A stretch of DNA of 64,000 bases from an uncultured Armatimonadia bacterium. GTDB lineage: Bacteria; Armatimonadota; Zipacnadia; Zipacnadales; UBA5352. The stretch covers positions 5,639 to 69,638 of the forward strand of contig CAZTZN010000004.1 in assembly GCA_964617715.1 (NCBI GenBank). Direction: 5' to 3'. Position 1 is the stretch's first letter. Every line of letters starts with the position of its first letter. A program made the translations under genes and the position numbers. Below, piece by piece: positions 5,030 through 58,496 of this stretch. The notes under the pieces are model-generated. The model did no database searches, was not told the DNA's origin, and saw only the letters and a list, made by a program, of their open reading frames with translations.

Positions 5030-5262
5030 GGGGTAGTCTGACTCGGGCCCCGGCATCACAGTACCCGGACTTCGACCGGCGCCACCGACAGCATCACCTC
5101 CGCCACGACGGCGAGCACGACCACGGCGCCCGGCGTCTCGAGCATCGTCACAGGCGGGCCTCCACGGGAGACGACTGTGCAGGAGGCAGCGCCGGGCCCC
5201 GGGATGAGTCTCCGCAGGGGCCGCCCGCACCTGCGGCGAACCGCCCGCCCGAGGTGATGGCG

Positions 5263-8685: not shown

Positions 8686-8695
8686 CCCGGTCTCG

Positions 8696-11350: not shown

Positions 11351-11520
11351 GGCTACCTCCGAAACCGCGCTCCGTCCAGGTTTCCCGTCGGCGCACCACT
11401 TCTCTGTCCGCCCCGGGGTGACCTCGCTCCGGCGACCACGGCCCCTTCAGGTGCGAGGTCCGCGGGTGTCGGGCGAAGAAGCCTGTCGCACGTGAGTCGC
11501 CGTGCCGAGGAGTGATCGCC

Positions 11521-33200: not shown

Positions 33201-34217
33201 CTACACCAGCTCGTCAATGGGCGTGAGCAGCGAGTAATCGCAGGTGGTGGACATCGCGTGCTGGTCGATCTCAATACCCTGCTCGGAGGCGGCGGCCATG
33301 GGGGTCAGGCCCGCGACCACCACCAGCCCGACGCGGTCCATGCCCACCGGCAGGTCGAGCAGCGGCTGGCCCGGGGAGCCCAGCGCCAGCACACCGCCCA
33401 GCCCGTGGTCCTTGAGCCGCTCGATGACCTCCAGCGCTTCATTGAGCGCGATCGCGGGGATCTCGCGGAAGCCTGCGCCGACCATGCCCGAGCCGGTGGT
33501 GGCCGCCTGATGCGACGAGGTCAGTCCGGAGTGGATGAAGATGTGCAGCGGGTCGATCGACGAGCCGGCATAGCTGACCAGCTCGACGAAGCGCAGCGGG
33601 CGCGTGTCACGCACTTCCAGCAGCCCGCCATAGATCGAGCTGGCCGGGATGTAGCGATGCAGCAGCACGCCGTTGAGCGTGACCGAGCACACCGTGCCCA
33701 CCGCGACCATGCCCTCGGGGACGGGATCTCCCAGCACCTCGCCCTCCTCGGCGATGATCACCAGGTGGCTCATGCACAGCTCGGCGTCCATGACGGTCTT
33801 GGCGCACTCAAGCGCCTGCGGCAGGTCCTCGGCGCGCAGGCGCGAGACGTTGAGGATCACCTCGCCCTCGCCGGTCTCCACGTCAAAGCTGGTGGCGTAA
33901 GCGAGCCGGTCGATACGCGCGGCCACGAAACCGACCTTCTCATGCACCAGCGCGCTGGCCAGCTCCTCGCGGCCGAGGTCGGTGAGCACCCGCCCGGCGT
34001 TGCCCACCGCCAGCGTCAGGCCGCGCTCGTCCATGAACTGCAGGTGGTAGCGCACCTGACGCTCGCTCAGCTCGATGCCGAGTTTCTGCAGCTCGCGCCC
34101 GAGCGCGCGCGCCCCCAGTGGCTTTTCGTAGTCGGACAGCACGCGCAGGATGGCCACCATCTTGCGGCGCACATCGCGGTCATCGTTCAGAGGCTGCACT
34201 GAGGGCGACTGGGCCAT
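33201..34217 (-). CDS. NrpR-like nitrogen regulator: winged helix plus a single NRD/DUF128-like domain, 338 aa
   Basis: N-terminus KMVAILRVLSDYEKPLGARALGRELQKLGIELSERQVRYHLQFMDERGLTLAVGNAGRVLTDLGREEL. This closely parallels, as recalled from memory, the archaeal NrpR N-terminus (...GERAVRYHLKLLDEEGLT..VGYAGR.IT.KG.EEL). RBS GGAGAG. Confidence 0.55.
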   Translation of the reverse strand: MAQSPSVQPLNDDRDVRRKMVAILRVLSDYEKPLGARALGRELQKLGIELSERQVRYHLQFMDERGLTLAVGNAGRVLTDLGREELASALVHEKVGFVAARIDRLAYATSFDVETGEGEVILNVSRLRAEDLPQALECAKTVMDAELCMSHLVIIAEEGEVLGDPVPEGMVAVGTVCSVTLNGVLLHRYIPASSIYGGLLEVRDTRPLRFVELVSYAGSSIDPLHIFIHSGLTSSHQAATTGSGMVGAGFREIPAIALNEALEVIERLKDHGLGGVLALGSPGQPLLDLPVGMDRVGLVVVAGLTPMAAASEQGIEIDQHAMSTTCDYSLLTPIDELV

Positions 34218-34235: not shown

Positions 34236-34264
34236 CGTTCAAAAACTGCTCCCTTGAGGGGAGC
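34236..34264 (-). terminator. Rho-independent terminator on the minus strand: GCUCCC-cucaa-GGGAGC followed by AGUUUUUGAAC
   Basis: 6-bp GC stem (34248-53 / 34259-64) and a U5 tract (complement of AAAAA at 34241-45). It lies between the stop of 34461..35576 and the NrpR-like ATG, which is 24 nt beyond the U-tract. Confidence 0.55.
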
Positions 34265-34460
34265 TTGAGCGGCGGAAGGATAAGGCCTCGCGTGGGCGGT
34301 GTCAAGCGGTTGCGGATCTGCTGCGCGTGCTCCCGGTCGCCGTCGCGCTCCTACCCGGCGCACCATGGGAAGGCGCTCGTGGCCCGAGGTGCTCTGCCTA
34401 CGGTGCGCTCGCGTGGAAGTGGCCTCGGACGCGGGGAGGAACATCTCCGCAGGCCCCTCG

Positions 34461-35862: not shown

Positions 35863-36540
35863 ATGTCGCAGAACGTACCTGCACGCCCCACCCGCGCATG
35901 GCCCGATCGTCGGCGGCTGACCCTCTGGCTGGCGATTGCCCTCGGGGCGCTGGCGCTGATCGCACTGTGCATCGTGTTCGTGGATGAGCCCGTGGCGCAG
36001 GCCAAGCCTGCGTGGCTCAACAGCATCGGCGTCGAGGTGGTCGAAACTCTCGGCTACTGGGCGGGAGGATGGCCGTTGGCGCCGTCGCTGCTGGCGGTGG
36101 CACTGATCTACGCCGGAGTGCGCTGGCGCCGGCTGCTGCTGAGCTTCGTGGTGGCCTATCTGATGCGCACGGCGGCGGTGGAATCGCTGAAGTGGCTCAC
36201 GGGCCGCCCGCGCCCCCGGCAGATGGATGGCGTGTCGGCGTTCTACGGCCCCAGCGCCGAGTTTCACTCGTTCCCCTCGGGGCACGCCGCCTTCGGCTTC
36301 ATGTTCGCGGTGCTGCTCTCCGCCTACTTCCCGCGCTATCGCTGGTTGTGGTACGCGGGCGCCGTGCTCATCTGCGTCGCGCGGGTGACCTGCGACGCGC
36401 ACTTCGTGTCCGACGTGATCCTCGGCGGGGTGATCGGTGCGCTCGTCGCGCTGCTGGTACTGCGCCGGTGGCCGCCCGACGCGCCGGTCGGCGTCGAGTC
36501 ATCTCGTTTCGCCGGGCACGCCCCTGAGCCCACGCGCTGA
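35863..36540 (+). CDS. PAP2-family membrane phosphatase, 225 aa
   Basis: Motifs KWLTGRPRP (KX6RP), PSGH and ARVTCDAHFVSDV (SRX5HX3D-like). Five to six TM segments. ATG at 35863 inside the longer track ORF 35449..36540. Confidence 0.8.
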   Translation: MSQNVPARPTRAWPDRRRLTLWLAIALGALALIALCIVFVDEPVAQAKPAWLNSIGVEVVETLGYWAGGWPLAPSLLAVALIYAGVRWRRLLLSFVVAYLMRTAAVESLKWLTGRPRPRQMDGVSAFYGPSAEFHSFPSGHAAFGFMFAVLLSAYFPRYRWLWYAGAVLICVARVTCDAHFVSDVILGGVIGALVALLVLRRWPPDAPVGVESSRFAGHAPEPTR

Positions 36541-36630
36541 TCGTGGGCTCGCCCCGGGCGGAGGTCGGGCGACCGGCCTCGTGGAAGGCCTTTGTGGTCG
36601 CCTACCGCAACGTGATGGGGGAGCCCGCCC

Positions 36631-38382
36631 ATGATATACGTCATGGTGTCGATCCTCGCCGCCCTGCTTGTGTTCGTGTGGGTCGAGCCGGCCGACGCGC
36701 AGTCGGCCGACAGGCCCGTCTTTACCCCCCTGGGCGAGGCCACGCGTGATTACGATTTCGGCTCCCTGACCAGGCTGCCCGATGGCCGCCTGTTCACCTG
36801 GTGGGCGGTGGGGAAGAGGTGGCTCAACGAGGAGGACATCGCCGATCCCGACATCCCCCAGCAGGCGTTGTGCCGATGGTCGGACGACGATGGCCGCACC
36901 TGGTCGAGCAAGCAGCTGCTCTTCGAGTTCCCGCGTGTGATCGGTGAGCGTCTGGATGGCCTGACCATGGTGGACAGCGAGGGCGTGCTGCGTATCTTCG
37001 GCATGAATCACCTCGCGCTCAACGTGCAGACCATGGCTCCGGAGGATCAGGACCGCGACATCTGGCAGTCGGTGTCGCGCGACATGGGGCGCACCTGGTC
37101 GCCCTGCGCCGAGATCGACTACGGCCACAGCACGGTCGGATGGCTGAACAACGTCACTGAGCTGTCTGATGGCCGTATCGTGCTGCCCCTAGCCTATCTG
37201 TCGGCCCGCGAAACCGGCAAGTGGATAGCCACCTGCATCTACTCCGATGACCGGGGCGACACGTGGCGGCACAGCAGATCACATCTGGTGGTGGACTCCG
37301 GGCGCGGGGACCTCGAATCGGGCGCCTGCGAGCCGGTGGTCATCGAACTTGAGCCCGGGCGGCTGTGGATGCTCATCCGCACACAGACCGGCTGGTTGTA
37401 CGAGGCGTTCTCGGACGACGGCGGCGAGACCTGGTCGGCGCCGCTGCAGTCGCGCTTCAAGAGCACCAACTCACCGGCGGGCGTGTTCAAGCTCGACGAC
37501 GGCCGCATCGTGCTGATGTGGAACAACTGCACCTTCGGCAATCTCGAGGACTTCCGCGGAGACCGTTCGGTAGTCGCGGCGGCGATCAGCGCCGATCAGG
37601 GCATAACCTGGCACGGCTACCGGGAGATCGCGCGCGCGGTGAGCACGTGGGCGCTGGCCTACCCCTTCGCCGCGCAGACCAACCGGGGCGACATCATTAC
37701 CTACCTGCAGTTCGGCAGCCACCGCCTTCCCCCCTTCGATCCCGACTGGCTGATGGAGGTCGCCGACGCCGACGACTTCGCGAACGGCATGGATCTGTGG
37801 TCGGTGGCCGGCGCCGAGGGCGTCACGGTCGAGGAGCTGCCCGATGCGACCGGTGGGCGCGCCCTGGTCATGCGCAAGACCGCTCGCGAACGCCGGGCGG
37901 CGGTGTCGCGCAACTTCCCCTTCGGCGCGCGCGGGCGCGTTGAGCTGCGCCTGCGTCCGGTCGAGGGCTGGGGCGGGGCGTCGATCACGCTTACCGACGT
38001 CTACTCTCTCCCGCCGTTTGACCGTCCGGGCAGCTTCCGCGTTGAGATACTGGCGGACGGCACGCTGATCGCGGTGCAGCCCAACGGGGCGTCGGCTCCC
38101 GTCGCGACGGCGCCGGTGGGCGAGTGGTTCACGCTGGCCTTCGAGTGGGACTGCGCTCGACATCGTTGCGCGCTGATGCTCGACGGCACGCAGGTCGGTC
38201 GGCTGTGGCAGTTGCCGGCCCCGGACCTGGCCAAGTACCCCTCGAACGCGGCGAGCGGGCAGGCGACGTCCTACGCCCCCGGGATCTGCTACGTCCGGCT
38301 GCGGTTGAGCGCCGAGGAGACCGACGAGGCGGGGCTGGTGGTGGATCGGTTCGCGGCCGCGGTGAGCGCCGACCGGGACTGA
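36631..38382 (+). CDS. Secreted BNR-repeat (sialidase-like) beta-propeller protein with a C-terminal concanavalin/LamG-like domain, 583 aa
   Basis: Signal peptide. Five Asp-box (BNR) motifs: SDDDGRTW, SRDMGRTW, SDDRGDTW, SDDGGETW, SADQGITW. C-terminal block ...GEWFTLAFEWDCARHRCALMLDG. Confidence 0.75.
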   Translation: MIYVMVSILAALLVFVWVEPADAQSADRPVFTPLGEATRDYDFGSLTRLPDGRLFTWWAVGKRWLNEEDIADPDIPQQALCRWSDDDGRTWSSKQLLFEFPRVIGERLDGLTMVDSEGVLRIFGMNHLALNVQTMAPEDQDRDIWQSVSRDMGRTWSPCAEIDYGHSTVGWLNNVTELSDGRIVLPLAYLSARETGKWIATCIYSDDRGDTWRHSRSHLVVDSGRGDLESGACEPVVIELEPGRLWMLIRTQTGWLYEAFSDDGGETWSAPLQSRFKSTNSPAGVFKLDDGRIVLMWNNCTFGNLEDFRGDRSVVAAAISADQGITWHGYREIARAVSTWALAYPFAAQTNRGDIITYLQFGSHRLPPFDPDWLMEVADADDFANGMDLWSVAGAEGVTVEELPDATGGRALVMRKTARERRAAVSRNFPFGARGRVELRLRPVEGWGGASITLTDVYSLPPFDRPGSFRVEILADGTLIAVQPNGASAPVATAPVGEWFTLAFEWDCARHRCALMLDGTQVGRLWQLPAPDLAKYPSNAASGQATSYAPGICYVRLRLSAEETDEAGLVVDRFAAAVSADRD

Positions 38383-38410
38383 TGGCGAGCCGCGCTTGCG
38401 GCCGCGCGTG

Positions 38411-39142
38411 TCAGTAGGCGTAGAGCTTGCCGTAGGGCCGGGCGCTGCGCGGGTAGAGCTTGACGAACTCGTCGGGGGAGAACCGCTCCGGATCGGCGTC
38501 GAACCTTCGGCACCAGTGCGCGATGATTTCCGCGAGCGCACTCCACTCGGCCTCGCCGACGCGGCCGATGCCCACCTCGGCGCCGAGTTGGTGGTCCGCG
38601 ACGTGGCCCCGGATGAACATGGCGCCCCCATGCATCCCCGTGCCGCAGTAGCGGCCGACCGGGGAGCCGTCCGCATTGCCGTGATTGAGCACCACAATGA
38701 CCCCGCCCGCCATGTACTCGCCGAGGTAGTCGCCGGCGGTGGTGCCCACGACCATGACCGGCAGCTTGCTGTCGTAGGCCTTGCAGTGGATGCCGCAGCG
38801 GTATCCCACCTGCCCGCGTACCAGGATCATCCCGCCGCGCATGGAATGCCCGAGGATGTCGCCTGCGTCGCCGCCGACCACGATACGCCCCGCGTTCATG
38901 GTGTTGCCCACGCCATCCTGGACGTTGCCGTTGACGGTGATCCCGGCTCCGTCCATGAACGCCGCGAGGTCGTTGCCCGGAGTCCCGTTGATAGCGATGG
39001 TCACCCCGGCGCGCAGTCCCGCGCCGATGTAGCGCTGGCCCAGCACGTTGTCGAGCACGAACTCGCGCTCGCCGGCCTCGACGGCGGCGTGGATGCGCTC
39101 GTTCAACTCGCGGTAGTGCAGTCCGTGTGCGTCGATCTTCAT
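38411..39142 (-). CDS. Glutamate synthase GXGXG (GltB C-terminal) domain protein, archaeal split type, 243 aa
   Basis: Repeated G-rich beta-helix motifs: GAGLRAGVTIAINGTPGNDLAAFMDGAGITVNGNVQDGVGN...GGMILVRG...GGVIVVLN. Start ATG overlaps the stop of the upstream gene (ATGA at 39139-39142). Confidence 0.8.
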   Translation of the reverse strand: MKIDAHGLHYRELNERIHAAVEAGEREFVLDNVLGQRYIGAGLRAGVTIAINGTPGNDLAAFMDGAGITVNGNVQDGVGNTMNAGRIVVGGDAGDILGHSMRGGMILVRGQVGYRCGIHCKAYDSKLPVMVVGTTAGDYLGEYMAGGVIVVLNHGNADGSPVGRYCGTGMHGGAMFIRGHVADHQLGAEVGIGRVGEAEWSALAEIIAHWCRRFDADPERFSPDEFVKLYPRSARPYGKLYAY

Positions 39143-40431
39143 ACCTCAATCCCCTGGCCGGAGACGATGTGCTTGCGGTACTCGGCAGGCAGTGAGATCA
39201 GCCCGAACTCCTCGGTGAGCAGCATGTGCTTGATGTCCGACACGTCAAGCCGCCGGCGGATCAGGCCGGTGATGATGCCCGCGCGGTCGATATCATTCAC
39301 GAACACCGCGCCCACGATGCGGTTGCCGCGCAGCACCACCTTGCGGTAGGTGAAGCTCGCCTCGTCGAGGTCCACGAGTTGCTCGCAGCCCTCGTCCGGC
39401 GGTTCGGTGACGCCGACGGAGATGGTGGGCAGATCGACCACGGTCACCGCGTTCATGACCAGGCCGCCGTCGAAGTGCTCATCGCCGCCCGCCATGTTGC
39501 GCCCCGCGACGGAGCCCTGGCGGAAGGCGTTGGGAAAGATAGCGATGCAGCGCTTCTCCCCCCCGATCAGCTCACGCGCCTGGGCCACGTCGCCGGCGGC
39601 GTAGATGCCCTCGGCCGAGGTGTGCATCCGGTCATCGACGATGATGCCGCGATCGACCTCGATGCCGGTGCCCCCGACGATCGCAGTGTCGGGCAGCACG
39701 CCGATGGCGAAGATGACCAGCCCGCACTCGACCTCGGAGCCATCTGTGAGCCGCGCCCCGGCGACGCGTTCGGCGCGTGTGATGATGCTCGCCACGGTCG
39801 TCCGGCAGCGCACCTGGACGCCGCTGTCGGCCAGGCGCCGCTGGGCCAGCTTCGATGCGGTGTCATCGAAGGTGGCGCTGAGCATGCGCCCCGCCAGCTC
39901 GACCACCGTGGTGCGCACATCTCGCGCGATCAGCGCCTCGACCGACTTGAGGCCGATGAGCCCTCCGCCCACCACGACCGCCGAGTCGATGTCGTGCTCG
40001 TCGATGAAGGCGCCGATGGCTTCGGCATCGTCCCAGGTGGTGAAGGTGAATACGCCGCGCGCGCCCACGCCCTGCACGTCGGCGGGAACGATCGGCCGCC
40101 CACCCACCGCGATGAGCAGCCGCTCGAAGCCGATGGTCCGGCCGTCGCCGGTCGCCACCGTGCGCGCCTGCGGATCGACCCGCGTGACCTCCACGCCGAG
40201 CATCGGGGTCACGCCCATCTGCTCGTACCAGCCCTCCGACCGGTAGCGCATCTGCTTCTCACCGACCTTGCCGCCGAGCAGATAGGTGATCAGCGGGCGC
40301 GAGTAGGTGTGTCGAGGCTCCTTCGCGATGAGGGTGATCGCGCCGTCGCGGTCCTCTGCGCGGATGGCCTCGACCGCGGCGACGGCCGCGACCGAGTTGC
40401 CGACTATCAGATACCTGGTCTCACTCGTCAT
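39139..40431 (-). CDS. FAD-dependent pyridine nucleotide-disulfide (NAD(P)H) oxidoreductase, 430 aa
   Basis: ATG at 40431 (MTSETRYLIVGNSVAAVAAVEAI is the FAD-binding GXGXXG/A region); the track ORF extends to 40623 through Ser/Ala/Arg junk. A second Rossmann VVVGGGLIGLKSVEAL for NAD(P). Motif AAGDVA. Confidence 0.75.
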   Translation of the reverse strand: MTSETRYLIVGNSVAAVAAVEAIRAEDRDGAITLIAKEPRHTYSRPLITYLLGGKVGEKQMRYRSEGWYEQMGVTPMLGVEVTRVDPQARTVATGDGRTIGFERLLIAVGGRPIVPADVQGVGARGVFTFTTWDDAEAIGAFIDEHDIDSAVVVGGGLIGLKSVEALIARDVRTTVVELAGRMLSATFDDTASKLAQRRLADSGVQVRCRTTVASIITRAERVAGARLTDGSEVECGLVIFAIGVLPDTAIVGGTGIEVDRGIIVDDRMHTSAEGIYAAGDVAQARELIGGEKRCIAIFPNAFRQGSVAGRNMAGGDEHFDGGLVMNAVTVVDLPTISVGVTEPPDEGCEQLVDLDEASFTYRKVVLRGNRIVGAVFVNDIDRAGIITGLIRRRLDVSDIKHMLLTEEFGLISLPAEYRKHIVSGQGIEV

Positions 40432-40861
40432 CTTCGAGCACCAGCGCCTCATTCGGGCAGTTGGCGACGCAGGCGGGCAGCTCCTCGCCCAGGCACAGGT
40501 CGCACTTGGACGCGATCTGCTCGCCGCCGCGCTTGATCGCGCCGACCGGGCAGACCATGATGCACATCCAGCAGCCCACGCAGCGATCGGTGTCGCACAG
40601 CACCGCGCCGGTCTCCGGGTCACGATGCATGGCCCCGGTCATGCACGCCTCGATGCATGGCGCATCCGCGCAGTGTCGGCACTGCAGCGCGAACGCGTGG
40701 TAGCCGAGCTGCTCCACCCGCAGCCGCGGCTCGATCAGGTCGCGCTCCTCGCGGAAGGCCTTGATGATCTTCTTCGAGCGCGAGTGCTGCACCAGGCAGT
40801 GCACCTCGCACAGCCGGCAGCCGATGCAGTACTCCTCGTTGATGCGGATGCGCTTCATCAC
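40421..40861 (-). CDS. 4Fe-4S dicluster ferredoxin-domain protein, 146 aa
   Basis: Cys clusters CIGCRLCEVHC, CRHCADAPCIEAC, CVGCWMCIMVCP and CDLCLGEELPACVANCP. Overlaps the start of the oxidoreductase gene by 11 nt. Confidence 0.8.
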   Translation of the reverse strand: MMKRIRINEEYCIGCRLCEVHCLVQHSRSKKIIKAFREERDLIEPRLRVEQLGYHAFALQCRHCADAPCIEACMTGAMHRDPETGAVLCDTDRCVGCWMCIMVCPVGAIKRGGEQIASKCDLCLGEELPACVANCPNEALVLEDDE

Positions 40862-42370
40862 TCACTCCCCCGCGGCGGCGATGCCCAGGATGTCCAGCTC
40901 GCGATCGGTCAGGCCGACGCCACGCAGGTGATCGCGGTTGCCGCGCAGGCTCTCGATGGCATTGATGCCCATCCCGCCCATGATCTCCTTGATCTCGTGC
41001 CCCCAGCTTCGCAGCAGGTTGACCAGCCGGCGCGTGGCGATGTTGGGGTTCAGCCGCCGGGTGAGGTAGGGGTCCTGGGTGGCGATGCCCCAGTTGCATT
41101 TGCCCGTGTAGCACTTCTGGCACAGGTGGCAGCCCATCGCCACCAGCGCCGCCGTGCCGATGTAGACCGCGTCCGCGCCCAGTGCCACCGCCTTGACCAC
41201 GTCGGCGGCGCAGCGGAAGCTGCCGGCTACCACCAGCGAGGCCTCCTGCCGGATGCCCTCCTCGCGCAGCCGGCTGTCCACGGCCGCGAGCGCGAACTCG
41301 ATGGGGATGCCGACATTGTCGCGGATCATGGTGGGCGCCGCGCCGGTGCCGCCGCGGTAGCCGTCGATGGCCACGATGTCGGCGCCCGCGCGCACGCAGC
41401 CCGAGGCGATGGCCGCCACATTGTGCACCGCCGCGATCTTCACCGAGATCGGCTTGCGGTAGCGCGTGGCCTCCTTGATCGCGAAGATGAGCTGGCGCAG
41501 GTCCTCAATCGAGTAGATGTCGTGGTGCGGCGCGGGGGAGAGCGCGTCGGTGCCCTCGGGGATCATGCGCGTGGCCGAGATGGCCGCATCCACCTTCTCG
41601 CCCGGAAGGTGCCCGCCGATGCCCGGCTTGGCGCCCTGGCCGATCTTTATCTCGACCGCCGCCGCTGAGTCGAGGTACGCCACATCCACGCCGAAGCGTC
41701 CCGAGGCCACCTGCACGATCATGTTGTCGGCGAACTCGCGCAGGCTCTCGTGCAGGCCCCCCTCCCCGGTGTTGGCGTAGGTGCCGACCTCGCGCGCCGC
41801 CCGTGCCAGCGCCTCCGAGGCGTGATAGCTGATCGAGCCGTAGCTCATTGCCGAGAACATCACCGGTATCTGCAGTTCAAGCTGGGGCGGGATCTGCGCC
41901 TGCAGGTCCGGCTGGGCGCCGGCGAAGTCGAGCCGCCCGGGTTTGCGTCCCAGCCGGGTGAGCAGCTCCATGGGCTCGCGCAGCGGGTCGATCGAGGGGT
42001 TGGTCACCTGACTGGCGTTGAGCAACATGCGATCCCAGTAGACCGGCAGCGGCCGGTCGTTGCCCATGCCGGTGAGCAGCACGCCGCCATCCTCGGCCTG
42101 CCGATAGAGGTTGCGGATGATCTCCGGCGTCCAGTTGGCGTTGGCGCGGAACTCAAGCTGGGCCGCGCGGATCGAGATGGCCTGCGTCGGGCACAGCGAG
42201 GCGCAACGGTGGCAGCCCACGCAGCGAGTCGCGTCGCTGAACACCTGCTGCAGGTCGGCGTCGAACTCGTGCACATCGTTGGCGCACTGGCGCACGCACA
42301 CCTCGCACTCGATGCAGCGCTCGGGATCGCGCTCGATCAGGAAGTCAGGTTGGACGAGCCACTTGCGCAC
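40862..42370 (-). CDS. Glutamate synthase FMN-binding catalytic domain (GltB domain 2) with N-terminal 2x[4Fe-4S] ferredoxin, archaeal split type, 502 aa
   Basis: N-terminus CIECEVCVRQC...CVGCHRCASLCP. Core motifs GEGG, IKIGQGAKPGIGGHLPG, SPAPHHDIYSIEDL, DGYRGGTGAAP. C-terminal Cys cluster CHLCQKCYTGKC. Confidence 0.85.
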   Translation of the reverse strand: MRKWLVQPDFLIERDPERCIECEVCVRQCANDVHEFDADLQQVFSDATRCVGCHRCASLCPTQAISIRAAQLEFRANANWTPEIIRNLYRQAEDGGVLLTGMGNDRPLPVYWDRMLLNASQVTNPSIDPLREPMELLTRLGRKPGRLDFAGAQPDLQAQIPPQLELQIPVMFSAMSYGSISYHASEALARAAREVGTYANTGEGGLHESLREFADNMIVQVASGRFGVDVAYLDSAAAVEIKIGQGAKPGIGGHLPGEKVDAAISATRMIPEGTDALSPAPHHDIYSIEDLRQLIFAIKEATRYRKPISVKIAAVHNVAAIASGCVRAGADIVAIDGYRGGTGAAPTMIRDNVGIPIEFALAAVDSRLREEGIRQEASLVVAGSFRCAADVVKAVALGADAVYIGTAALVAMGCHLCQKCYTGKCNWGIATQDPYLTRRLNPNIATRRLVNLLRSWGHEIKEIMGGMGINAIESLRGNRDHLRGVGLTDRELDILGIAAAGE

Positions 42371-42407
42371 TGCGGGTCTCTCCCGGGAAGCTGGGTTGGT
42401 GTCTCGC

Positions 42408-43511
42408 TCAGCCGGCCGCGACCTCGGCCCGGAGTCGTCCGACCACCGGCTCGCCCCCTTCGGGGCGCCAGACCAGCTCGGGGTCGGGGCACACCACTCG
42501 AATCGCCGCCTCCTCCGAGGCGAGGTAGAGCACGTCGCCGGCCCGCGCCGCGACCTGCGGGCGCAGCTTGATGCGGTCGGAGAAGCCGATCATGCGCCCC
42601 GTCGAACCCACCACGATCGCGAAGGGGCCGTTGAGCAACGCGCCGCCGTAGACCGTGCGGATGGCCTGCGCCTGCGCCTGTCGCTCCGGCGGCATGCGCT
42701 CGATCTCCTCCCAGAACGGCGGCGCCATGGCCGTGAAGGCCGCCTCGGGCGGCAGCCCATGCTTGCGCATAAGCAGGTCGAACAGGTAAGCGATGACCTC
42801 GGTATCGGTCTGCAGCGTGCAGTCGTAGCCGAAGTTCTTGAGATAGCGCTTGTTGATCCCGTAGGACGAGATCTCGCCGTTGTGTACGATGGCCCAGTCG
42901 AGCAGTGCGAACGGGTGCGCTCCGCCCCACCAGCCGGTGGTGTTGGTGGGGAAGCGGCCGTGGGCGATCCAGGTGTAGGCATCGTATTCGTCGAGGCGGA
43001 AGAACTCGCCGATGTCCTCGGGATAGCCCACGCCCTTGAATACGCCCATGTTGCGGCCACTGGAGAACACGAAGGCGTCCTCGACCGCCGCGTTGATGTG
43101 CATGTGCAGCGCGACGATGAGGTCGTCCTCGTCGAGGTGCCGCGCGGCGGCCAGGTCGTCGGGGTGGATGTTCACGAAGTAGCGGTGCAGGATCGGCTCG
43201 CCGCCGACGGCCGCCACCGGGCGCGTGGGGATGGGCTCAGCGTGATGGACCAGGCAGCGCTGCTCCAGCAGCGCCTCGGTCGCCGCCCGGGCCGCCGGCG
43301 TCTCGAACATCAGGTGCAGAGCGTAGCTGTCGGCGCGTTCGGGGTAGATGCCGTAGGCCGCGAAGCCTCCGCCCAGGCCGTTGGAGCGCTCGTGCATGTT
43401 GGCGACGGCGCGGATGATGGTGTCGCCTGAGAAGCGTCGGCCGCTCTCATCCATGATGCCTACGATGGCGCACGCGCCGATGTCTTTGAAGGGCAGACTC
43501 CTGGATCCCAT
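42408..43511 (-). CDS. Class-II glutamine amidotransferase domain protein (GltB domain 1 homolog), 367 aa
   Basis: CAIVGI appears after a 13-residue leader MGSRSLPFKDIGA; the conserved RGLGG-type block is NGLGGGFAAYGIY. No start codon immediately precedes the Cys, so a propeptide is inferred. Confidence 0.75.
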   Translation of the reverse strand: MGSRSLPFKDIGACAIVGIMDESGRRFSGDTIIRAVANMHERSNGLGGGFAAYGIYPERADSYALHLMFETPAARAATEALLEQRCLVHHAEPIPTRPVAAVGGEPILHRYFVNIHPDDLAAARHLDEDDLIVALHMHINAAVEDAFVFSSGRNMGVFKGVGYPEDIGEFFRLDEYDAYTWIAHGRFPTNTTGWWGGAHPFALLDWAIVHNGEISSYGINKRYLKNFGYDCTLQTDTEVIAYLFDLLMRKHGLPPEAAFTAMAPPFWEEIERMPPERQAQAQAIRTVYGGALLNGPFAIVVGSTGRMIGFSDRIKLRPQVAARAGDVLYLASEEAAIRVVCPDPELVWRPEGGEPVVGRLRAEVAAG

Positions 43512-43599
43512 GACCGTGACTCACTTCGCACGCCTCGGGTGGTGTCGCGAACCAGCCGCAAGGCTCTCCGCGGTGCACATTCTCGGCGGAGAGGCAAGA

Positions 43600-43622
43600 C
43601 GGCAGTCGGCAACCGACTGCCG
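43600..43622. terminator. Perfect 10-bp inverted repeat CGGCAGTCGG-caa-CCGACTGCCG between the glnA stop and the GOGAT operon start. Candidate glnA terminator (followed on the minus strand by UCUUGCCUCU) and/or operator.
   Basis: Seen directly in the sequence. 125 nt downstream of the glnA stop and about 90 nt upstream of the GATase start. Confidence 0.4.
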
Positions 43623-43746
43623 ACCCTCATGGGCGCAGCCTACACTACCGGCGCGGCAGTTGTCAAGATCGCCCGGCACTCGGGGGTACGCGCAGCCGGG
43701 CGCAGCGGCGCTGCGCCCGGGGCTCGGCGGCTCGCAAGTTCTTCGC

Positions 43747-45180
43747 CTACAGATCGTAGTAGAGCACGTACTCGTGTGGATGAGGCCGCAGGTTGACCTG
43801 TGCGACCTCGTCGCGCTTGAGCGCTATCCACTCCTCGATGAGGTCGGCCGAGAACACGCCCCCCTCGAGCAGGAAGTCATGGTCGGCCTCGAGTGCGTCG
43901 AGCGCATCCGCCAGCGAAGTGGGGAGCTGGGTGATACGCGCCCGCTGCTCGGGGGCCATCTGTGTGATGTCCTCGTCGAAGGGCCCGAAGCCGTGTTCGG
44001 CGGGGTTAATGGCGCGTTTGACGCCGTCGAGGCCTGCCATGGTCATTGCCGCGAGGCTCAGGTAGGGGTTGCAGGTAGCGTCGGGCGGGCGGAACTCGAT
44101 GCGATTCTCACGCTCGTTGACCGCGTAGGCGGGGACACGGATGGCGGCGGTGCGGTTGGACAGGCCGAAGAACGCGCTGATGGGCGCTTCGTATCCCGGC
44201 ACCAGCCGGCGGTAGGAGTTGGTGCTCGGACTGGTGAGCGCCAGCAGCGCCGCGGCGTGCGTGAGCAATCCGCCGATCCAGTGCAGCGCCATCTCGCTCA
44301 GGTTCGCGTAGGCGCCGTCGGGGTCCCAGAACAGCGACCTGCCGTCATCGGTCACGTACTGATGCACGTGCATGCCGTTGCCGGCCTCGCCGAACATGGG
44401 CTTGGGCATGAAGGTCGCCGACATGCCCGCACGGTCGGCGATGTTGCTGATAAGATACTTCATCTCCATGACCGCATCGGCCATCTTCAGCAGCGGCCCG
44501 AAGCCCACCTCGACCTCCACCTGCCCCGGCGCCCCGACCTCGTGGTGATGGTAGTGCACCGGCACGCCCGCGGCCTCGATGGCCAGGAGCATCTCGGTGC
44601 GCAGGTCGTTCAACCGGTCACGCGGGGGCGCCGCGTGGTAGCCCCCGTGCGTGTCAATGGTGTGGCCCAGGCGCGGCTCGCCCTCTGCGGGCGTGTGCCA
44701 TGAAGCCTCTGTCGAGTCCACCTCGAAACCCGCGGCGCTGATCTCCGACCGATATGCCGCGCTTGAGAATACGTAGAACTCCATCTCGGGCGAGAACACC
44801 GGGTAGCCGGAGGTAACGACCTCCGAGAAGTACTTCTCGGCTCGCCGCGCGACCCCCCGTGGATCGCGCACGTAGGCCTGCCCGTCGGTCGGCTCGACGA
44901 TATCGCAGATGAAGCTGAGGGTCGTCGCCCGACAGAAGGGATCGAGCATCCCGGTGCTCAGGTCGGGAACGACCCGCATGTCCCCGGCCTCGACGCTCTT
45001 GTAGCCGACATAGCTGGAAGTGTCCACCCCGCTGCCACGTAGCAACGCTTCCTCGGTGAGGTGGCTGGCCGGAAGCGTCACGTGACGGCGTCGCCCCAGC
45101 AGATCAACGGTCTTCAGGTCCACCATCTGGACCGCTTCAGAGACCACGAATTCGAGTGCTTCACTGGCGTCTGCGAACAT
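43747..45180 (-). CDS. glnA: Glutamine synthetase type I (GSI-alpha-like; no adenylylation motif seen), 477 aa
   Basis: ATG at 45180 with GGGAGAGGG 8 nt upstream; the track ORF begins 15 codons earlier. Conserved GS blocks GPLLKMADAVMEMKYLI, KPMFGEAGNGMHVHQ, NSYRRLVPGYEAP, RIEFRPPDATCNPYLS. Confidence 0.9.
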   Translation of the reverse strand: MFADASEALEFVVSEAVQMVDLKTVDLLGRRRHVTLPASHLTEEALLRGSGVDTSSYVGYKSVEAGDMRVVPDLSTGMLDPFCRATTLSFICDIVEPTDGQAYVRDPRGVARRAEKYFSEVVTSGYPVFSPEMEFYVFSSAAYRSEISAAGFEVDSTEASWHTPAEGEPRLGHTIDTHGGYHAAPPRDRLNDLRTEMLLAIEAAGVPVHYHHHEVGAPGQVEVEVGFGPLLKMADAVMEMKYLISNIADRAGMSATFMPKPMFGEAGNGMHVHQYVTDDGRSLFWDPDGAYANLSEMALHWIGGLLTHAAALLALTSPSTNSYRRLVPGYEAPISAFFGLSNRTAAIRVPAYAVNERENRIEFRPPDATCNPYLSLAAMTMAGLDGVKRAINPAEHGFGPFDEDITQMAPEQRARITQLPTSLADALDALEADHDFLLEGGVFSADLIEEWIALKRDEVAQVNLRPHPHEYVLYYDL

Positions 45181-45425
45181 GATCGCGCCCTCTCCCTGAT
45201 GCGCCGGTTGATTTGTGCACGACATGATAGCGCGATTCGGCGTCCGGATTCAACTGTCGGCATAATGTTCACCGCACTCCTGCGGGCACCCGGGCCGTAT
45301 CCGCAGGTTTGCTCAGACGGCCTGCGCGATTGCCGATGATGTACTGGAGATGCCTGGCAAGCACAGGATGCGCGCCCCCCGGAAACCGCGGGGGAGTGGG
45401 GAGTGAGTGAACCCAACGAGCGCCG

Positions 45426-45665
45426 GTGGCGGAGGACAGCACGGCGTCACGTATTGCAGTCGCGCGACTGCCCGAACGCAGCGGCCGCCTGGTCACGGTC
45501 GCCGAGGACGGCTTGCGGCCGATGGCGCTGGCCACGCCGGAGGTGGACGTGGCGCTGATCGACCGGCTGATGCCCGGCACCGACGACTACGTCGCCGGGC
45601 CCGTCGTGGACCACCGCGGGCTGGTCGAGCGCGTCGCCTCCCTGCTCGTGCGAAGGGTCGCGTGA
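45426..45665 (+). pseudogene. Degenerate response-regulator receiver-domain remnant (about 80 codons, no proper start; ORF track begins at GTG)
   Basis: ...RLVTVAEDGLRPMALATPEVDVALIDRLMPGTDDYVAG matches REC beta2-alpha2-beta3 (GYxVxxAxDGxxAL...PDLVLLDLMLPGMDG). It lacks the N-terminal DD pocket and the T/K segments. It is bounded by a stop 5 codons upstream of the GTG and a stop at 45663-45665. Confidence 0.3.
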
Positions 45666-45753
45666 GGGCGCAGGCCAACTCGGCGGTAGCGGCGAATACA
45701 TCGGCCACGAGGTGCGCCCCATCTCCGGCATCCGCCGCCGAGGAGGCAGCACG

Positions 45754-48700
45754 ATGAACGTCAGCGTCCCTCTGATCCTGTGCGCACTGCTGCTGTGCGC
45801 CCCGCTCGTCGGCGCTCAGACGCGCGAGTGGTGGAATCCCGGCTGGAGTTACCGGACCACCGTTGCGCGGCCGACGCCCTTCCGCGATGACGCGCCGCGC
45901 GCGGTCGCGGCGGCCATCGACTTCCCGCTGCTGCTGCAGCGCGCCGGTGTCGCCGGGGAGTTCGACCCGGCCTCAGTGCGCGTGGTCGATCCGGCCACGG
46001 GGACCCAGGTGCCCTGCGCGCTGCGCACTGAGTGGGACCCGTGCAGCCATCGCGAGGTGGACTACCTGGCGTGGTGGGCGCGTCCGCGCGCGGGCGAGAT
46101 CGGCAAGTTTGATGTATACTTCGACACCGCCGACCGCGCCGTCGCGCCCGCCGAGTACCGCGCCGACGAGCTGCCGCCTGAGGAGCTGCTCGCCAACCCC
46201 GGCTTCGAGGACGAGGAGGGCGGCCTGCCCGCGGGTTGGTCGATCTCCGTCCCTGAGCTGGCCTCGTTGGGCCGTTGCGCGCACACCGTAGGTGAGCGCT
46301 CTCTGCGCCTGCACGTGGATGCGCGGACCGACGAGGGACTTCCCCGCGAGGTCGCCATCTCGCAGCGGGTCGATGTACGCGAGTTCGCCGGTCAGGAGGT
46401 GCGCTTTGCCTGCTCGCTGTGGCCTGAGCGCGGCAAGTTCGGGACGCCCATGACCGTCGAGCTGGTGCAGCTTCGCGCCGACGGCTCGCGTATCCCTGAG
46501 TTCGCGATCCAACCGCGCTGGCTGACCGTCGAGATGGCCGAGGGGCAGCTCGTCGAGTTCGCCGAGCACGGACGCATCAACCCCGAGGCCGCCACCATCG
46601 AGGTCATCATACGCCTGCGCCTCTACGCCCGGGCGGCGTTCGATGGCACCGCGCCCACCGATGACGAGCGCGAGTACACCGTCTGGCTCGACCGTGTGAG
46701 CCTGCGCCCGGGCGAGCGCTGGCCGTGGCCGGAGGCGGCGCACGAGTGCTTCGCTGAGGGTGCTCTGACCGACGCTCCCGTCAACCGGGCCATCGACTTC
46801 ACCGGCGATCGTATGCTGATGTTCACCGGCGCTTCCGAGGGCACTCTGACCGGCGGGCGCTACAACCCGAACCTGCGCTCCGTCCACTGGGGCCCCACCG
46901 CCGGAACGCTGGAGATGTGGGTAAGGCCCCACTGGTCCTCGGGCGATGACGGGGTGCACACGCTCTTCTACGCGAAGGCGTACATGCACCGGCTGCAGTC
47001 GCGGCTGCGTGTACTTGGCGGCGACAATGCCGCGCTGGAGTTCACCATCTCCGATGCCGCCCGGCAGAACCACACGGTCCGCGGGCCGGTGACGCTGGAG
47101 GCGGAACGCTGGCACCACGTGGCCGTCACCTGGGATCTGCCGCGCGCGCACCTGCAGCTCTTCCTCGATGGCGCGCTCATCGCCACCGAGGGACCGGGCG
47201 CCGATCCCTGGCCGTGTACCGACGACCCCAACGACCCCGACATCGAACTCGGCCAGGGCACCAGCCCGGACGATCGGCGCTCTATCCCCATGCAGGCCAC
47301 CATCGGGGCGGGGGCGTCCGGCTCGTACACCGCCGACGCGGTGATCGACGAGGTGCGCATCTCCGACGTGGTGCGCTACACCGGCGCCTTCGAGCCGCCG
47401 GTGACCGAATTCGCCGTCGATGACGCCACCCGCGCGCTCTTCCACTTCGACCACGAGAAGCACGGCACGCACGCCGGCGACGACCGCTTCGTCGAGGGGT
47501 TCTTCGTATGCGAGGAGCAGCCGCGGGAGGAAGCGGTCCCGTTCGCCGTCAACCGGGGCGGCGGGGTGCAGGAGCGTATGCTCGTCGTCGCGCCCCACGC
47601 CTCCGAGCAGTTGTGGGAGCGCAACCGGGTGCACACCAGGCTTCCGGTCGTGCGCCCCGAGCGCGAGCTGCCCGATCCGCGCTTCGTCGAGCTGCGCCGG
47701 CGCTCGATCATGCGCACCGTCACCGGAGACGCCGAGCCGCTGTCGGTTGAAGTCGGCGGCGATTTTGTCCCGCTGATGCTCTCGTCGAGCTTCCGCCGCG
47801 CTGATGAGGCGGGCGAGGCGACCACCTTGATCCCGCGCTGGCGAGCGGGCGACGCGGTAGTGCCCTTCAGCTTCGAGGACCTGCAGGCCACGCTCGCGCC
47901 CGGCGCCGAGACCGACGCTGCGCGCGCGCTGGAGATCTTCCGCTACGCGCTGGAGACCACCAACTACTACGATGCGCGCTACTGCGAGAGCGTCGGAGCC
48001 ACGCAGCGCAACCGGGTGTCATACACACTGATCCGCGCGCTCAACATCTACCCCTTCGACCAGTGCGGGCCGCTCAATCACATGCTGCGCTACCTGCTCA
48101 TCGCCGGCGGTATCTCCAGCAACAACGCGCCCGGCACCCACCATCAGTTCGAGCAGGCTCACTTCGACGGCAGCCTGCGTCTGCTTGACCTCTCACCACG
48201 CCAGTACTGGCTCGACCGCGACAATCAGACCGTCATCAGCCTGCGCCGCATGACCGAGGACCCGTGGCTGAAGATCCGTCAGGGCGGCGACATCAACGCC
48301 TGGATGCCCGGCATCCGCAGCTCCGCCACCTTCGGGAGCGTGGCCAAGCATCATCGCATCGACGTCCCCCTCCGTCCCGGCGAACGCATCAGCTTTGGCT
48401 GGCACAACGAGGGCCGCTGGATGGAGCTGGGCGCCGAACGCAGGCCGGTCCATCCTGCGCGCATCCCACCCTTCTACGGCAACGGCGCGCTCATCTGGGA
48501 GCCCACCGACACCGCCGGTGAGGCCGCGACGCTCGACAACCTCGCGCTCGACGATGGCGTCCTGCGCCCGATCGACGCGCAGGCTCCGGCGACGCTCATC
48601 TACCGCGTACGCCTGCCCTATGTCATCTCGGCGGCACGGTTGCTCGGGCAGCTATCCGGTGCGGCCACGGTCGCGGTCTCCTGGGACGATGGTGCGACCT

Positions 48701-50944: not shown

Positions 50945-51020
50945 CGGGCGCCCTGCGGAGGCTCCTGGCTTCCGGCAGGCGTGACGCGGGCCTTCTCCGG
51001 AACGGAGGGGCAGCCCGAGC

Positions 51021-51041
51021 GACGGACGCGCCGCGTCCGTC
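51021..51041. promoter_or_regulatory. Perfect 21-bp palindrome GACGGACGCG-C-CGCGTCCGTC, about 105 nt upstream of the DUF362 gene
   Basis: 10-bp arms, perfect, seen directly in the sequence. Candidate operator. Confidence 0.35.
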
Positions 51042-51145
51042 CGAGGGCGGGGGAGGTCCGGCTCCCGCAATGTCTGACTCAGGATCAGTCGATGCCACAT
51101 CCCAACCACGGACGGCTCCGGTCGTCCTTCCACGGAGGTCTCACC

Positions 51146-52243
51146 ATGCACGAGGTTCTGTTCGCCTCGGCGCACGTGCCCAGGCTCGAGCGCGATGTAT
51201 CGCTCCCGGCCCGCTTCGAGCGCCTGCTGGAGCGCTGCAACTACGGCGACCGCTTCGAGGGCAAACGCGTCGCCATCAAGATGCACGTCGGGAGCGCCAT
51301 CGGCTTCTACACCATCCACCCGATCTTTGTGCGCACCCTGGTAGATGCGGTGAGGGAAGCCGGAGGCAAGCCCTACCTCACCGACGGCAGCTTCTCCACC
51401 GACGCCGCCACCGCGCGCGGCTACGTCCCGGAGGTCGTGGGCGCGCGCGTGGTCGGGGCGGGCGGCGAGCATGACCGGTACCTGCGCACGGTCACCACCG
51501 AGCTGCCGGAGCTGGGCGACATCGAACTGTGCGGCAACATCGTGGACGCGGACGGGCTGATCGTCTTCAGCCATGGCAAGGGCCACGGCAACTCCGGCTT
51601 CGGTGGCGCCATCAAGAACATCGCCATGGGCTGCGTCAGCTACCCCACACGCGGCAAAATCCACGCGCTCATGCGCGGTCATTTCGAGTGGGACGGCGAA
51701 CTGTGCACCCACTGTGAGCAGTGCATCTCGGGCTGCCCGACCGGCGCGATCAAGTTCGATGACCAGGGCGAGCTGGTCATCTTCGACCACCACTGCCGCT
51801 ACTGTATGCATTGCACCATCTCGTGTCCCGTTGGCGCGATCACCATGGAGGAGCCGATCGAGAAGTTCGAGCTGTTCCAGGCCGGGATGGCGGCTACGTG
51901 CAAGGAGGCGCTCAAGTTCTTCGACCCCGCGGCGGTGCACTACGTCACCGTGCTGACCAACATCACGCCCCTGTGCGACTGCTGGGGGTTCTCGACCCGG
52001 CCACTGGTGCCCGACATCGGCATCATCGCCTGCGACAACATCGTCGCGGTCGAGCAGGCGGCACTGGACATGATCCGCCACGAGGACTACATCCCGGGGA
52101 CCCTGCCCGACCAGTACACCACCATGGGCGACGAGGGGCACCTGTTCCAGCGCATCCATGGCAAGGACCCCTACGAGCAGGTCCGCCAGGCTGAGAAGCT
52201 GGGTCTGGGCAACCCGCAGTACCGCCTCGTTGAGGTGCAGTAG
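51146..52243 (+). CDS. DUF362-family iron-sulfur protein with an inserted 2x[4Fe-4S] ferredoxin domain, 365 aa
   Basis: ATG at 51146 with GGAGG at 51133-37. Blocks VAIKMHVGS, GKPYLTDG, SHGKGHGNSGFGGAIKNIAMG. Ferredoxin insert CTHCEQCISGCPTGAI...CRYCMHCTISCPVGAI. Confidence 0.75.
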   Translation: MHEVLFASAHVPRLERDVSLPARFERLLERCNYGDRFEGKRVAIKMHVGSAIGFYTIHPIFVRTLVDAVREAGGKPYLTDGSFSTDAATARGYVPEVVGARVVGAGGEHDRYLRTVTTELPELGDIELCGNIVDADGLIVFSHGKGHGNSGFGGAIKNIAMGCVSYPTRGKIHALMRGHFEWDGELCTHCEQCISGCPTGAIKFDDQGELVIFDHHCRYCMHCTISCPVGAITMEEPIEKFELFQAGMAATCKEALKFFDPAAVHYVTVLTNITPLCDCWGFSTRPLVPDIGIIACDNIVAVEQAALDMIRHEDYIPGTLPDQYTTMGDEGHLFQRIHGKDPYEQVRQAEKLGLGNPQYRLVEVQ

Positions 52244-57892: not shown

Positions 57893-57893
57893 T

Positions 57894-58056
57894 GTATCGT
57901 CCCGGCTCGGTCGGAGGATGGCCCGGCGCGGGTTTCGTCCCGAGCGTGTGCCATCCCTCCGCGCGCGCCCGGAGCGATGGCGAAAGGACCGACACAGCGC
58001 GCCACACAGCTCGCCGCCGGCACCGGCGGGATATCCCCTCAGTGCCGGACCACGAG
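57894..58056 (+). promoter_or_regulatory. Split occurrence of the conserved module: GTATCGTCCCGG (57894-57905) and CCGGACCACGAG (58045-58056), separated by a 143-bp structured segment flanked by CCGG
   Basis: The fused form GTATCGTACCGGACCACGAG occurs at 35702-35721. The second half lies 39 nt upstream of the response-regulator ATG. Confidence 0.35.
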
Positions 58057-58094
58057 AGCTTGGGCGTAAGACTCGATCTATTGGAGTGACGACG

Positions 58095-58496
58095 ATGGTG
58101 CAACTTGCCGAGCGGCCACAGGCGACCGAGAGCGCCCCGCCCCTGCTGCTGCTGGTGGACGACGATCCGAATCACCGCGAGATCTATCAGCGCCGACTGC
58201 AGCGCCGTGGCTATCGCGTGCGCGTGGCCGGGAGTGCCGACGCGGCCGTGGCGGCGCTGCGCGAGAGCATGCCGGCCGCGGTGGTGCTTGACATCGTCAT
58301 GCCCGCGCGTGACGGCCTCAGTGCGTTGCAGGAGATGATCGCACTCAGGCCCGATCTGCCCGTCATCATCCACAGCGCCTATCCGGTCTTCCGCGACGAC
58401 TTCACCGCGTGGATAGCCGACGCCTACGTGGAGAAGAGCTGCGACATCGAGCCGCTCTTGAGGGTGCTGGAGCGCACCCTGAGCCCGGCGGCGTAG
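58095..58496 (+). CDS. Single-domain (CheY-like) response regulator, 133 aa
   Basis: ATG at 58095 with GGAGTG upstream. LLLLVDDDPNHRE...AVVLDIVMPARDGL...PVIIHSAYP...YVEKS carries the D-D-D-T/S-K receiver signature. Confidence 0.8.
   Translation: MVQLAERPQATESAPPLLLLVDDDPNHREIYQRRLQRRGYRVRVAGSADAAVAALRESMPAAVVLDIVMPARDGLSALQEMIALRPDLPVIIHSAYPVFRDDFTAWIADAYVEKSCDIEPLLRVLERTLSPAA

Follow-up and report, generated by a model that had tools for sequence, protein, structure and literature searches.

A putative five-protein glutamate synthase operon with a candidate NrpR operator in Armatimonadota

The window analyzed in this work is a 64-kb stretch of DNA whose nearest relatives are metagenome-assembled genomes (MAGs) of Candidatus Zipacnadia, a class of Armatimonadota, one of them about 85% identical to the window and collinear with it; it probably holds the glutamine synthetase/glutamate synthase locus of a member of that class. 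Our results point to a glutamate synthase made of five proteins, in which a split catalytic core would receive electrons from NADH through a ferredoxin and a flavin adenine dinucleotide (FAD) reductase resembling the AorC/AorA pair, and whose operon would be repressed by an NrpR-family regulator acting on a palindrome just downstream of the promoter. Taken as a whole, we regard this reading as rather likely. The wider proposal, i.e., that five-subunit, NADH-dependent glutamate synthases governed by NrpR via GGCAA-N4-TTGCC form a broad class spanning many bacterial phyla, is one that we judge evenly poised. The window itself is an ordinary member of a widespread and under-studied variant, and what holds of the reading given in an earlier note on this DNA is its mention of an under-described bacterial variant of nitrogen control.

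The glutamate synthase operon and its proposed electron-input module

The genes of the locus are all encoded on the minus strand. The glutamine synthetase gene glnA (43747-45180, within an open reading frame, ORF, that extends to 45225, the ATG at 45180 being the likely start) is followed by the genes for a glutaminase subunit, a class II amidotransferase (GATase; 42408-43511, PF00310); for a synthase subunit that joins an N-terminal 2x[4Fe-4S] ferredoxin domain to a flavin mononucleotide (FMN)/Glu_synthase barrel (40862-42370; PF01645, E 2e-142); for a stand-alone four-cluster ferredoxin of the HycB/AorA/PadI-like kind (40421-40861, PF13247); for an FAD/NAD(H) reductase of the ferredoxin-reductase type, AorC/PadH-like (39139-40431, Pyr_redox_2 and Rubredoxin_C); and for a GXGXG beta-helix subunit, the counterpart of the GltB C-terminal domain (38411-39142; PF01493, 98 bits). 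The regulator gene nrpR (33201-34217), whose 338-amino-acid product consists of a winged helix (PF08461, E 2.8e-20) and one NRD (PF01995, E 1.7e-77), lies 4.2 kb past the GXGXG gene and 9.5 kb from glnA. The earlier note had located these six genes and nrpR in agreement with this, and each of its domain calls agrees with the Pfam and NCBIfam profile matches. The ferredoxin gene begins right after the stop codon of the FMN-subunit gene and shares 11 nt with the reductase gene, which in turn shares 4 nt with the GXGXG gene, an arrangement consistent with the translational coupling previously proposed for the ferredoxin and the reductase.

Judged by homology, the enzyme has the split (archaeal-type) architecture, with GATase, FMN/iron-sulfur and GXGXG parts as separate proteins, as the earlier note had recognized and as the matches to PF00310, PF01645 and PF01493 bear out. 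The catalytic Cys of the glutaminase is residue 14 (CAIVGI; the CAIVGIMD stretch served as a search pattern), a position that would imply a 13-residue propeptide; homologues from the metagenome scan mostly align from about residue 9, the first residues being variable. In the FMN subunit, Fer4_7 covers residues 18-64, and the protein matches residues 856-1181 of Azospirillum brasilense GltB (220.9 bits for the whole match). Its C-x2-C-x2-C-x4-C motif aligns with the GltB 3Fe-4S ligands, retaining the three cysteines and adding a fourth (MGCHLCQKCYTGKC versus MGCIMVRQCHSNTC), which suggests a 4Fe-4S cluster at the GltB 3Fe-4S site. The GXGXG protein matches the C-terminal domain of GltS (1llw, residues 1285-1437). 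The identity of the enzyme as a glutamate synthase rests on these homologies: the class II glutaminase would free ammonia from glutamine, the FMN/iron-sulfur subunit would reduce 2-iminoglutarate to glutamate, and the GXGXG subunit would play a structural part, as the GltB C-terminal domain does.

The remaining two proteins of the operon are related to known electron-transfer modules. The ferredoxin carries 16 Cys in four CxxCxxCxxxC-type cluster motifs, and its structural relatives are chain C of 8c0z (55.8 bits) and HycB-type proteins. The best structural relative of the reductase is chain E of the same entry (8c0z_E, 188 bits), aligned end to end over residues 6-407; according to its depositors, this chain of a tungsten aldehyde oxidoreductase structure is similar to ferredoxin:NADH oxidoreductases. 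Among NCBIfam models, the best match of the reductase is PadH, with 297 bits and thus below the cutoff of 475, and PadI is found among the matches of the ferredoxin without being the best (60 bits versus a cutoff of 700); with scores under the equivalog cutoffs, the pair is by profile comparison a sister family to PadH/PadI and not a member. At the position of the active Cys of Nox and coenzyme A (CoA)-disulfide reductases the protein reads YSRPLITY, with no redox-active cysteine, and it is therefore a reductase of the ferredoxin-reductase type rather than a disulfide reductase. An acidic residue closes its second Rossmann strand (TVVE), which suggests NADH rather than NADPH as donor. No GltD-like subunit was found among the predicted ORFs scanned in the window. 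Co-translated with the core, the ferredoxin and the FAD reductase would stand in for GltD, and electrons would pass from NADH to FAD, to the four [4Fe-4S] clusters of the ferredoxin, to the two clusters of the N-terminal ferredoxin domain, to the cluster at the GltB 3Fe-4S site and finally to FMN. The replacement of GltD by this pair had been suggested before; the missing subunit agrees with that suggestion, and the electron-input role itself remains our interpretation.

The genomic context of related enzymes links the pair to glutamate synthase. More than 100 proteins are homologous to the reductase at 55-77% identity, the named ones coming from Armatimonadota, WS1, Planctomycetota and Thermodesulfobacteriota; the three homologue loci that were inspected (a Thermodesulfobacteriota MAG, a Brocadiia MAG and a metagenome contig) display the same five genes in the same order, as do Armatimonadota relatives of the window. 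Altogether, Armatimonadota, Planctomycetota, Thermodesulfobacteriota, Chloroflexota and Actinomycetota all have representatives with the five genes. With the glutaminase subunit as query, a metagenome scan yielded at least 597 confirmed matches, and gene order was counted in 42 metagenome loci with a complete GATase, FMN and GXGXG trio. Ferredoxin and/or reductase genes lie inside the cluster in 33 of them, in at least three arrangements: Fd-FADred-GAT-FMN-GXGXG in 20, FMN-Fd-FADred-GAT-GXGXG in five, FADred-GAT-FMN-GXGXG in four, GAT-FMN-Fd-FADred-GXGXG (the order of the window) in three, and FMN-GAT-FMN-Fd-FADred-GXGXG in one (Fd, ferredoxin; FADred, FAD reductase; GAT, GATase). That the pair is shuffled in position yet kept in the operon is strong evidence for a function shared with glutamate synthase. 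Co-occurrence of the pair with split glutamate synthase in other genomes was a check that the earlier note had called for; most of the related loci show it, in several gene orders, and its claim that the pair belongs to the enzyme is upheld.

In its commonest arrangement, seen in about 20 loci, the cluster reads Fd-x-FADred-GAT-x-FMN-GXGXG, where x stands for interleaved HisH-like or HisF-like proteins. For instance, one locus (L108; the comparison loci are designated by L and a number) carries genes for a HisH-like class I amidotransferase and a HisF-like (His_biosynth) protein at 4073-4699 and 7191-7964. Judged by sequence similarity, the glutamate synthase operon here includes another pair of enzymes that uses glutamine.

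NrpR, its candidate operator and the control of glnA

The regulator proved to be a true member of the NrpR family, as the earlier note had supposed, and it is tied to nitrogen genes both by neighbourhood and by an operator-like motif. Its NRD aligns with the domain structure 3nek of Methanocaldococcus jannaschii NrpR (MJ0159; 82 bits), with the Cys of GTVCSVT conserved. A scan of one genome per species across bacteria and archaea gave at least 578 confirmed relatives, and locus statistics were taken from the best 80 of these. The best 80 are all bacterial and come from Armatimonadota, Dehalococcoidia and other Chloroflexota, Nitrospirota including Thermodesulfovibrionia, Thermodesulfobacteriota, Actinomycetota and Hydrogenedentota. 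Genes for glnA, split glutamate synthase, nadE, PII or amt lie at most 10 kb away in 24 of the 80 loci, and in some loci nrpR closes the glutamate synthase operon or diverges from it. The earlier description of the gene combination as unusual for a bacterium is hence not borne out, since the cluster and NrpR are common in many bacterial phyla.

The neighbourhoods of nrpR display two further features. Two NrpR paralogs, in tandem or divergent and 41-48% identical to the window protein, occur in L046, L055, L058, L068, L076, L077 and L080, an arrangement reminiscent of NrpRI/NrpRII in Methanosarcina. In addition, nadE, encoding a glutamine-dependent NAD synthetase, is often found beside nrpR and the glutamate synthase operon; between divergent nrpR and nadE there is a shorter palindrome with the same half-sites as the operator described below and a 2-nt spacer, CGGCAATATTGCCG, at about 4640 in L001 and about 3289 in L087, and also in L049, L068 and L076.

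The putative promoter of the glutamate synthase operon, read from the sequence, consists of TTGACA (43666-43661, minus strand), an 18-nt spacer and TAGGCT (43642-43637); its -10 box is too weak for the promoter scan, which missed it, and the promoter is weaker than that of the relatives. Just downstream lies the candidate NrpR operator (43600-43624), with the core CGGCAG-TCGG-TTGCCG on the minus strand (43622-43607) embedded in a palindrome with 10-bp arms, CGGCAGTCGG-TTG-CCGACTGCCG (43622-43600). The motif was traced from other loci: a palindrome search 5' of nrpR genes gave at first CGGCA-N6-TGCCG, and the consensus CGG(C/T)AA-NCGN-TT(G/A)CCG is strongly enriched 5' of these operons and of nrpR. 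When up to one mismatch is allowed, CGGCAA-N4-TTGCCG occurs 53 times in the 1.9 Mb of fetched loci versus 3-9 times in shuffles, mostly 20-120 bp upstream of the first gene of a glutamate synthase operon or of nrpR. The degenerate form GG[CAT]AA-N4-TT[GTA]CC is present upstream of nrpR in 26 of the 80 loci, at 1.14 per kb there versus 0.036 per kb elsewhere. Furthermore, a weight matrix built from 31 sites, all of them outside the window, reaches its top score in the 64 kb (14.8 bits) at 43605-43624.

This consensus grades into the archaeal NrpR operator, which has been defined as GGAAN6TTCC (PMC2723118). The continuum runs through mixed sites such as GGCAA...TTTCC to GGAAA-N4-TTTCC, which fits the archaeal consensus, and in Dehalococcoidia a site of the archaeal consensus, GGAAAACGGTTTCC, lies about 50 bp upstream of nrpR. 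The unit of promoter and palindrome is conserved in three Armatimonadota relatives, where TTGACA-N17-TATAAT or TATACT is followed by the same element (L164, CGGCAGTCGGCTACCGACTGCCG; L165, GGCAGTCGGCAGCCGGTTGCCGCCTGCC; L166, CGGCAGGCGGCTGCCGACTGCCG). The element precedes the glutaminase gene where a beta-type glnA with its own promoter lies 5' of it, and precedes glnA where an alpha-type glnA heads the operon. The glutamate synthase operon would accordingly possess its own sigma-70-type promoter with a GG(C/A/T)AA-N4-TT(G/T/A)CC palindrome directly downstream. From its gene 4 kb away, NrpR probably binds the palindrome at 43600-43624 as a repressor; like archaeal NrpR, it would bind at low 2-oxoglutarate and let go as 2-oxoglutarate rises.

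A second operator-like site is associated with nrpR itself, whose promoter TTGACA-N17-TATCCT lies in the region 34277-34317 (minus strand). The site, at 34298-34317, overlaps the -35 box and is the second-best weight-matrix match in the window, with 7.4 bits. We do not claim autoregulation of nrpR in the clade of the window, the site being weak and not conserved in close relatives. In the nrpR leader, between promoter and start codon, a terminator-like hairpin (34248-34264, minus strand), GCTCCCCTCAAGGGAGC followed by AGTTTTTG, may represent an attenuator or leader structure; it is kept in L004, and in L005 the sequence is GCCCCCCTCGCGGGGGC, with both sides of the stem changed and the pairing preserved.

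Several observations weigh against the reading given at the outset. Concerning the enzyme, the ferredoxin/reductase pair is absent from 9 of the 42 complete split clusters, several of which have kilobases of flank on each side, which implies that the core enzyme is able to use another donor; besides, the assignment of the electron donor draws on homology and gene linkage. Concerning regulation, exact GGAA-N6-TTCC has no match in the window, and one match to the bacterial palindrome at one mismatch or fewer arises in 17 of 100 shuffles of the window, so that the argument for the operator rests on position and on conservation across loci. The short-spacer form CGGCAA-N2-TTGCCG has no more than chance-level matches in the window. 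The site at the nrpR promoter is a weak one that L004-L006 do not conserve, and NrpR, rather than another protein, is assigned as the binder from co-location and from the resemblance to the archaeal operator.

The glutamine synthetase differs from the previous description. It had been called alpha-type, and it is in fact a type I, beta-type enzyme with Thr in place of the adenylylation Tyr, scoring 508.6 bits with TIGR00653 and thus passing the type I GlnA equivalog cutoff of 429 bits. From end to end, the 477-residue protein matches beta-type structures with scores of about 414-431 bits (Synechocystis 3ng0, 431 bits; Mycobacterium tuberculosis 1hto, 430 bits; Salmonella 1f52), as against partial alignments at 229-253 bits with alpha-type structures (Bacillus subtilis 4lnf; methanogen 8ool and 8tfb). 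The beta-specific insertion is present and aligns without gaps to 3ng0 and 1hto. An I-alpha identity (about 445 residues, no 25-residue insertion, Bacillus- or methanogen-like) was rejected on these three grounds of length, insertion and scores. The adenylylation Tyr alone is missing among the beta-type features (Tyr406 in M. tuberculosis, Tyr397 in Escherichia coli; DEDITQM in the window versus DKDLYEL). In relatives, the glnA lying 5' of the same operon is of the 477-residue type (L164, L166) or of the 445-residue type (L165, L002).

A promoter scan found a sigma-70-like promoter for glnA (TTGAAT-N18-TATCAT, 45224-45253, minus strand), with no NrpR-type site nearby (best weight-matrix score, -7.9 bits). 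Given its separate promoter and the lack of an operator-like site there, glnA is probably controlled differently from the glutamate synthase operon. The search for an operator upstream of both units, recommended in the earlier note, hence had a divided outcome: a palindrome conserved in L164-L166 at the glutamate synthase operon, and none at the glnA promoter of the window. Just past the glnA stop codon, a perfect GC-rich hairpin with 12-bp arms and no T tract (43696-43720, minus strand) may be the glnA terminator.

Alternative explanations

The alternative that survives best takes the palindrome at 43600-43622 for an RNA element, namely a stabilizing hairpin of the 5' untranslated region, an attenuator or part of the glnA terminator, instead of an operator. 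We consider it unlikely, but it has real support, which counts against the operator: the palindrome, situated in what is predicted to be the transcribed leader, folds into a perfect GC-rich stem of 10 bp and a 3-nt loop, and the arms are kept and the loop differs among the window, L164 and L166. Nevertheless, the arm sequence itself is conserved across phyla beyond what mere pairing would require, 13 of the 18 asymmetric sites would place a C-A mismatch in the mRNA-sense stem, and no T tract follows the hairpin. Rfam gave no matches in the whole window at gathering thresholds, nor in 43400-45800 at E<=1, which excludes a known riboswitch or leader. Conserved arms, C-A mismatches and the lack of a T tract or an Rfam match together favour a DNA site over an RNA hairpin; moreover, nrpR genes are preceded by the same motif, which merges by degrees with the archaeal NrpR operator.

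A recent horizontal acquisition of the block from archaea, which the earlier note had put forward, is very improbable and is not supported by our data. It draws on the fact that the first accounts of the split architecture and of NrpR came from archaea (PMC8097209, PMC9765008), and on the two closest relatives of the window, L004 and L005, which are without positions 36484-43712, i.e., the whole operon and one neighbour gene. The GC content, however, is 0.68-0.69 in the block and the same in the flanks, and farther Armatimonadota relatives (L006, L008 and L164-L166) have the operon in the same neighbourhood, so that its absence from L004 and L005 looks like loss. The named closest homologues of the reductase and of NrpR are bacterial, with 44-92% identity and from at least six phyla; the sole archaeal comparison at hand, MJ0159, is far more distant (82 bits). 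Wide bacterial spread, shared synteny within Armatimonadota and flank-like composition all speak against a recent transfer.

Around this gap, L004 (1891-2103) and L005 (at about 1941) are collinear with the window minus a 7.2-kb block comprising a BNR-repeat gene, the operon and its promoter, and in L004 glnA directly adjoins a PAP2 gene. The missing block has the look of a loss, or of a difference between assemblies, and its breakpoint near 36484 is recurrent.

Hardly credible, in turn, is a reading of the motif as a sigma-54 promoter (TGGCAC-N5-TTGC) instead of a site for a repressor. Many bacterial nitrogen genes use sigma-54 -24/-12 elements, which GGCA and TTGC resemble, and in the Brocadiia locus L002 a gene for a sigma-54 activator is found 4.6 kb 5' of the GATase gene, before amt-PII-glnA. 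Yet the spacing is GG-N9-GC instead of the strict GG-N10-GC, the matrix shows the site to be truly palindromic, its central CG being conserved and its flanks symmetric, asymmetric variants face either way with respect to the gene, and the GGAAA-N4-TTTCC end of the continuum is without the -12 GC; in L164-L166, furthermore, a good sigma-70 promoter lies just upstream of the motif.

The least probable alternative, that the core is an N-methylglutamate synthase (MgsABC-like, with its identical and well-established three-domain split) or another amidotransferase, or that the reductase, whose homologues bear generic annotations such as 'NAD(P)/FAD-dependent oxidoreductase' or 'NAD(P)H-nitrite reductase large subunit', is an oxygen-detoxifying NADH oxidase unrelated to the enzyme, is countered by neighbours in relatives that are glnA, amt, PII, nadE and nrpR and not methylamine genes, by a glutamine synthetase above the type I GlnA equivalog cutoff, by the missing active-site Cys of Nox and CoA-disulfide reductases, and by the four-cluster ferredoxin that accompanies the reductase inside the operon.

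Elsewhere in the window, two large paralogous proteins with DUF6785 and DUF6784 are encoded about 50 kb apart (3032-5029, plus strand; 55913-58171, minus strand), five more large ORFs have no Pfam match at all (639-2942, 4849-6243, 6247-8700, 8696-11446 and 11422-13482), and a DUF362 protein with an inserted two-cluster ferredoxin domain is encoded 3' of an aldo/keto reductase gene (50945-52243, plus strand).

Significance and comparison with known systems

Bacterial nitrogen control is classically attributed to NtrBC, GlnR/TnrA, NtcA and AmtR. Split glutamate synthase and NrpR are common in uncultured and anaerobic bacterial phyla, where they are linked physically and probably also in their regulation; if the wider proposal is true, repression by 2-oxoglutarate-sensing NrpR is a form of nitrogen control that crosses domains and not a euryarchaeal speciality. 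It would fill a gap in the knowledge of ammonium assimilation and 2-oxoglutarate sensing in Armatimonadota, Dehalococcoidia, Nitrospirota, Planctomycetota and others, and a concrete operator sequence and a five-protein enzyme are now available for testing. In the searchable literature we found no biochemical account of a five-protein glutamate synthase or of an NrpR regulon in bacteria. A similar five-gene set is presumably annotated in Thermotoga maritima (TM0394-TM0398), for which a literature search gave nothing usable. The split clusters of methanogens are not known to include the ferredoxin/reductase pair, and comparative-genomics databases (RegPrecise NrpR regulogs) may cover bacterial NrpR regulons.

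Among described systems, a three-gene glutamate synthase has been annotated in Geoglobus ahangari (PMC4600277), and a review mentions the split enzyme merely as ORFs existing in Archaea (PMC8097209). Like the archaeal enzymes of methanogens and Archaeoglobales, that of the window has separate glutaminase, FMN/iron-sulfur and GXGXG proteins and an FMN subunit with an N-terminal two-cluster ferredoxin domain; it differs in its bacterial host and in the ferredoxin and FAD reductase genes placed between the FMN and GXGXG genes. With the GltBD of A. brasilense and E. coli it would share the chemistry, the three catalytic and structural domains and the three 3Fe-4S cysteines; in contrast, its domains are separate proteins, a fourth Cys is present, GltD is missing among the ORFs scanned, and electrons would enter via an unrelated flavoprotein of the ferredoxin-reductase type and a polyferredoxin. 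AorC/AorA (8c0z) and the PadH/PadI of NADH-dependent phenylglyoxylate dehydrogenase likewise combine an FAD enzyme with a four-cluster ferredoxin, but those modules sit with a tungsten or 2-oxoacid enzyme, whereas that of the window sits with glutamate synthase.

NrpR has been described as a euryarchaeal repressor (PMC9765008). The regulator of the window shares with methanogen NrpR the winged helix, the NRD and the conserved Cys, and its candidate operator is likewise a 14-bp inverted repeat with GG...CC ends, just downstream of a promoter. It differs in being bacterial, in having a single NRD versus two, in the half-site GGCA(A/G) versus GGAA, and in that glnA has no site in the window; its apparent target, the glutamate synthase operon, is not among the Methanococcus maripaludis operator genes listed in PMC2723118. 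The elements that set the locus apart from the described systems are the putative AorC/AorA-like electron input in place of GltD, the GGCA(A/G) half-site and the glutamate synthase operon as the apparent target of NrpR.

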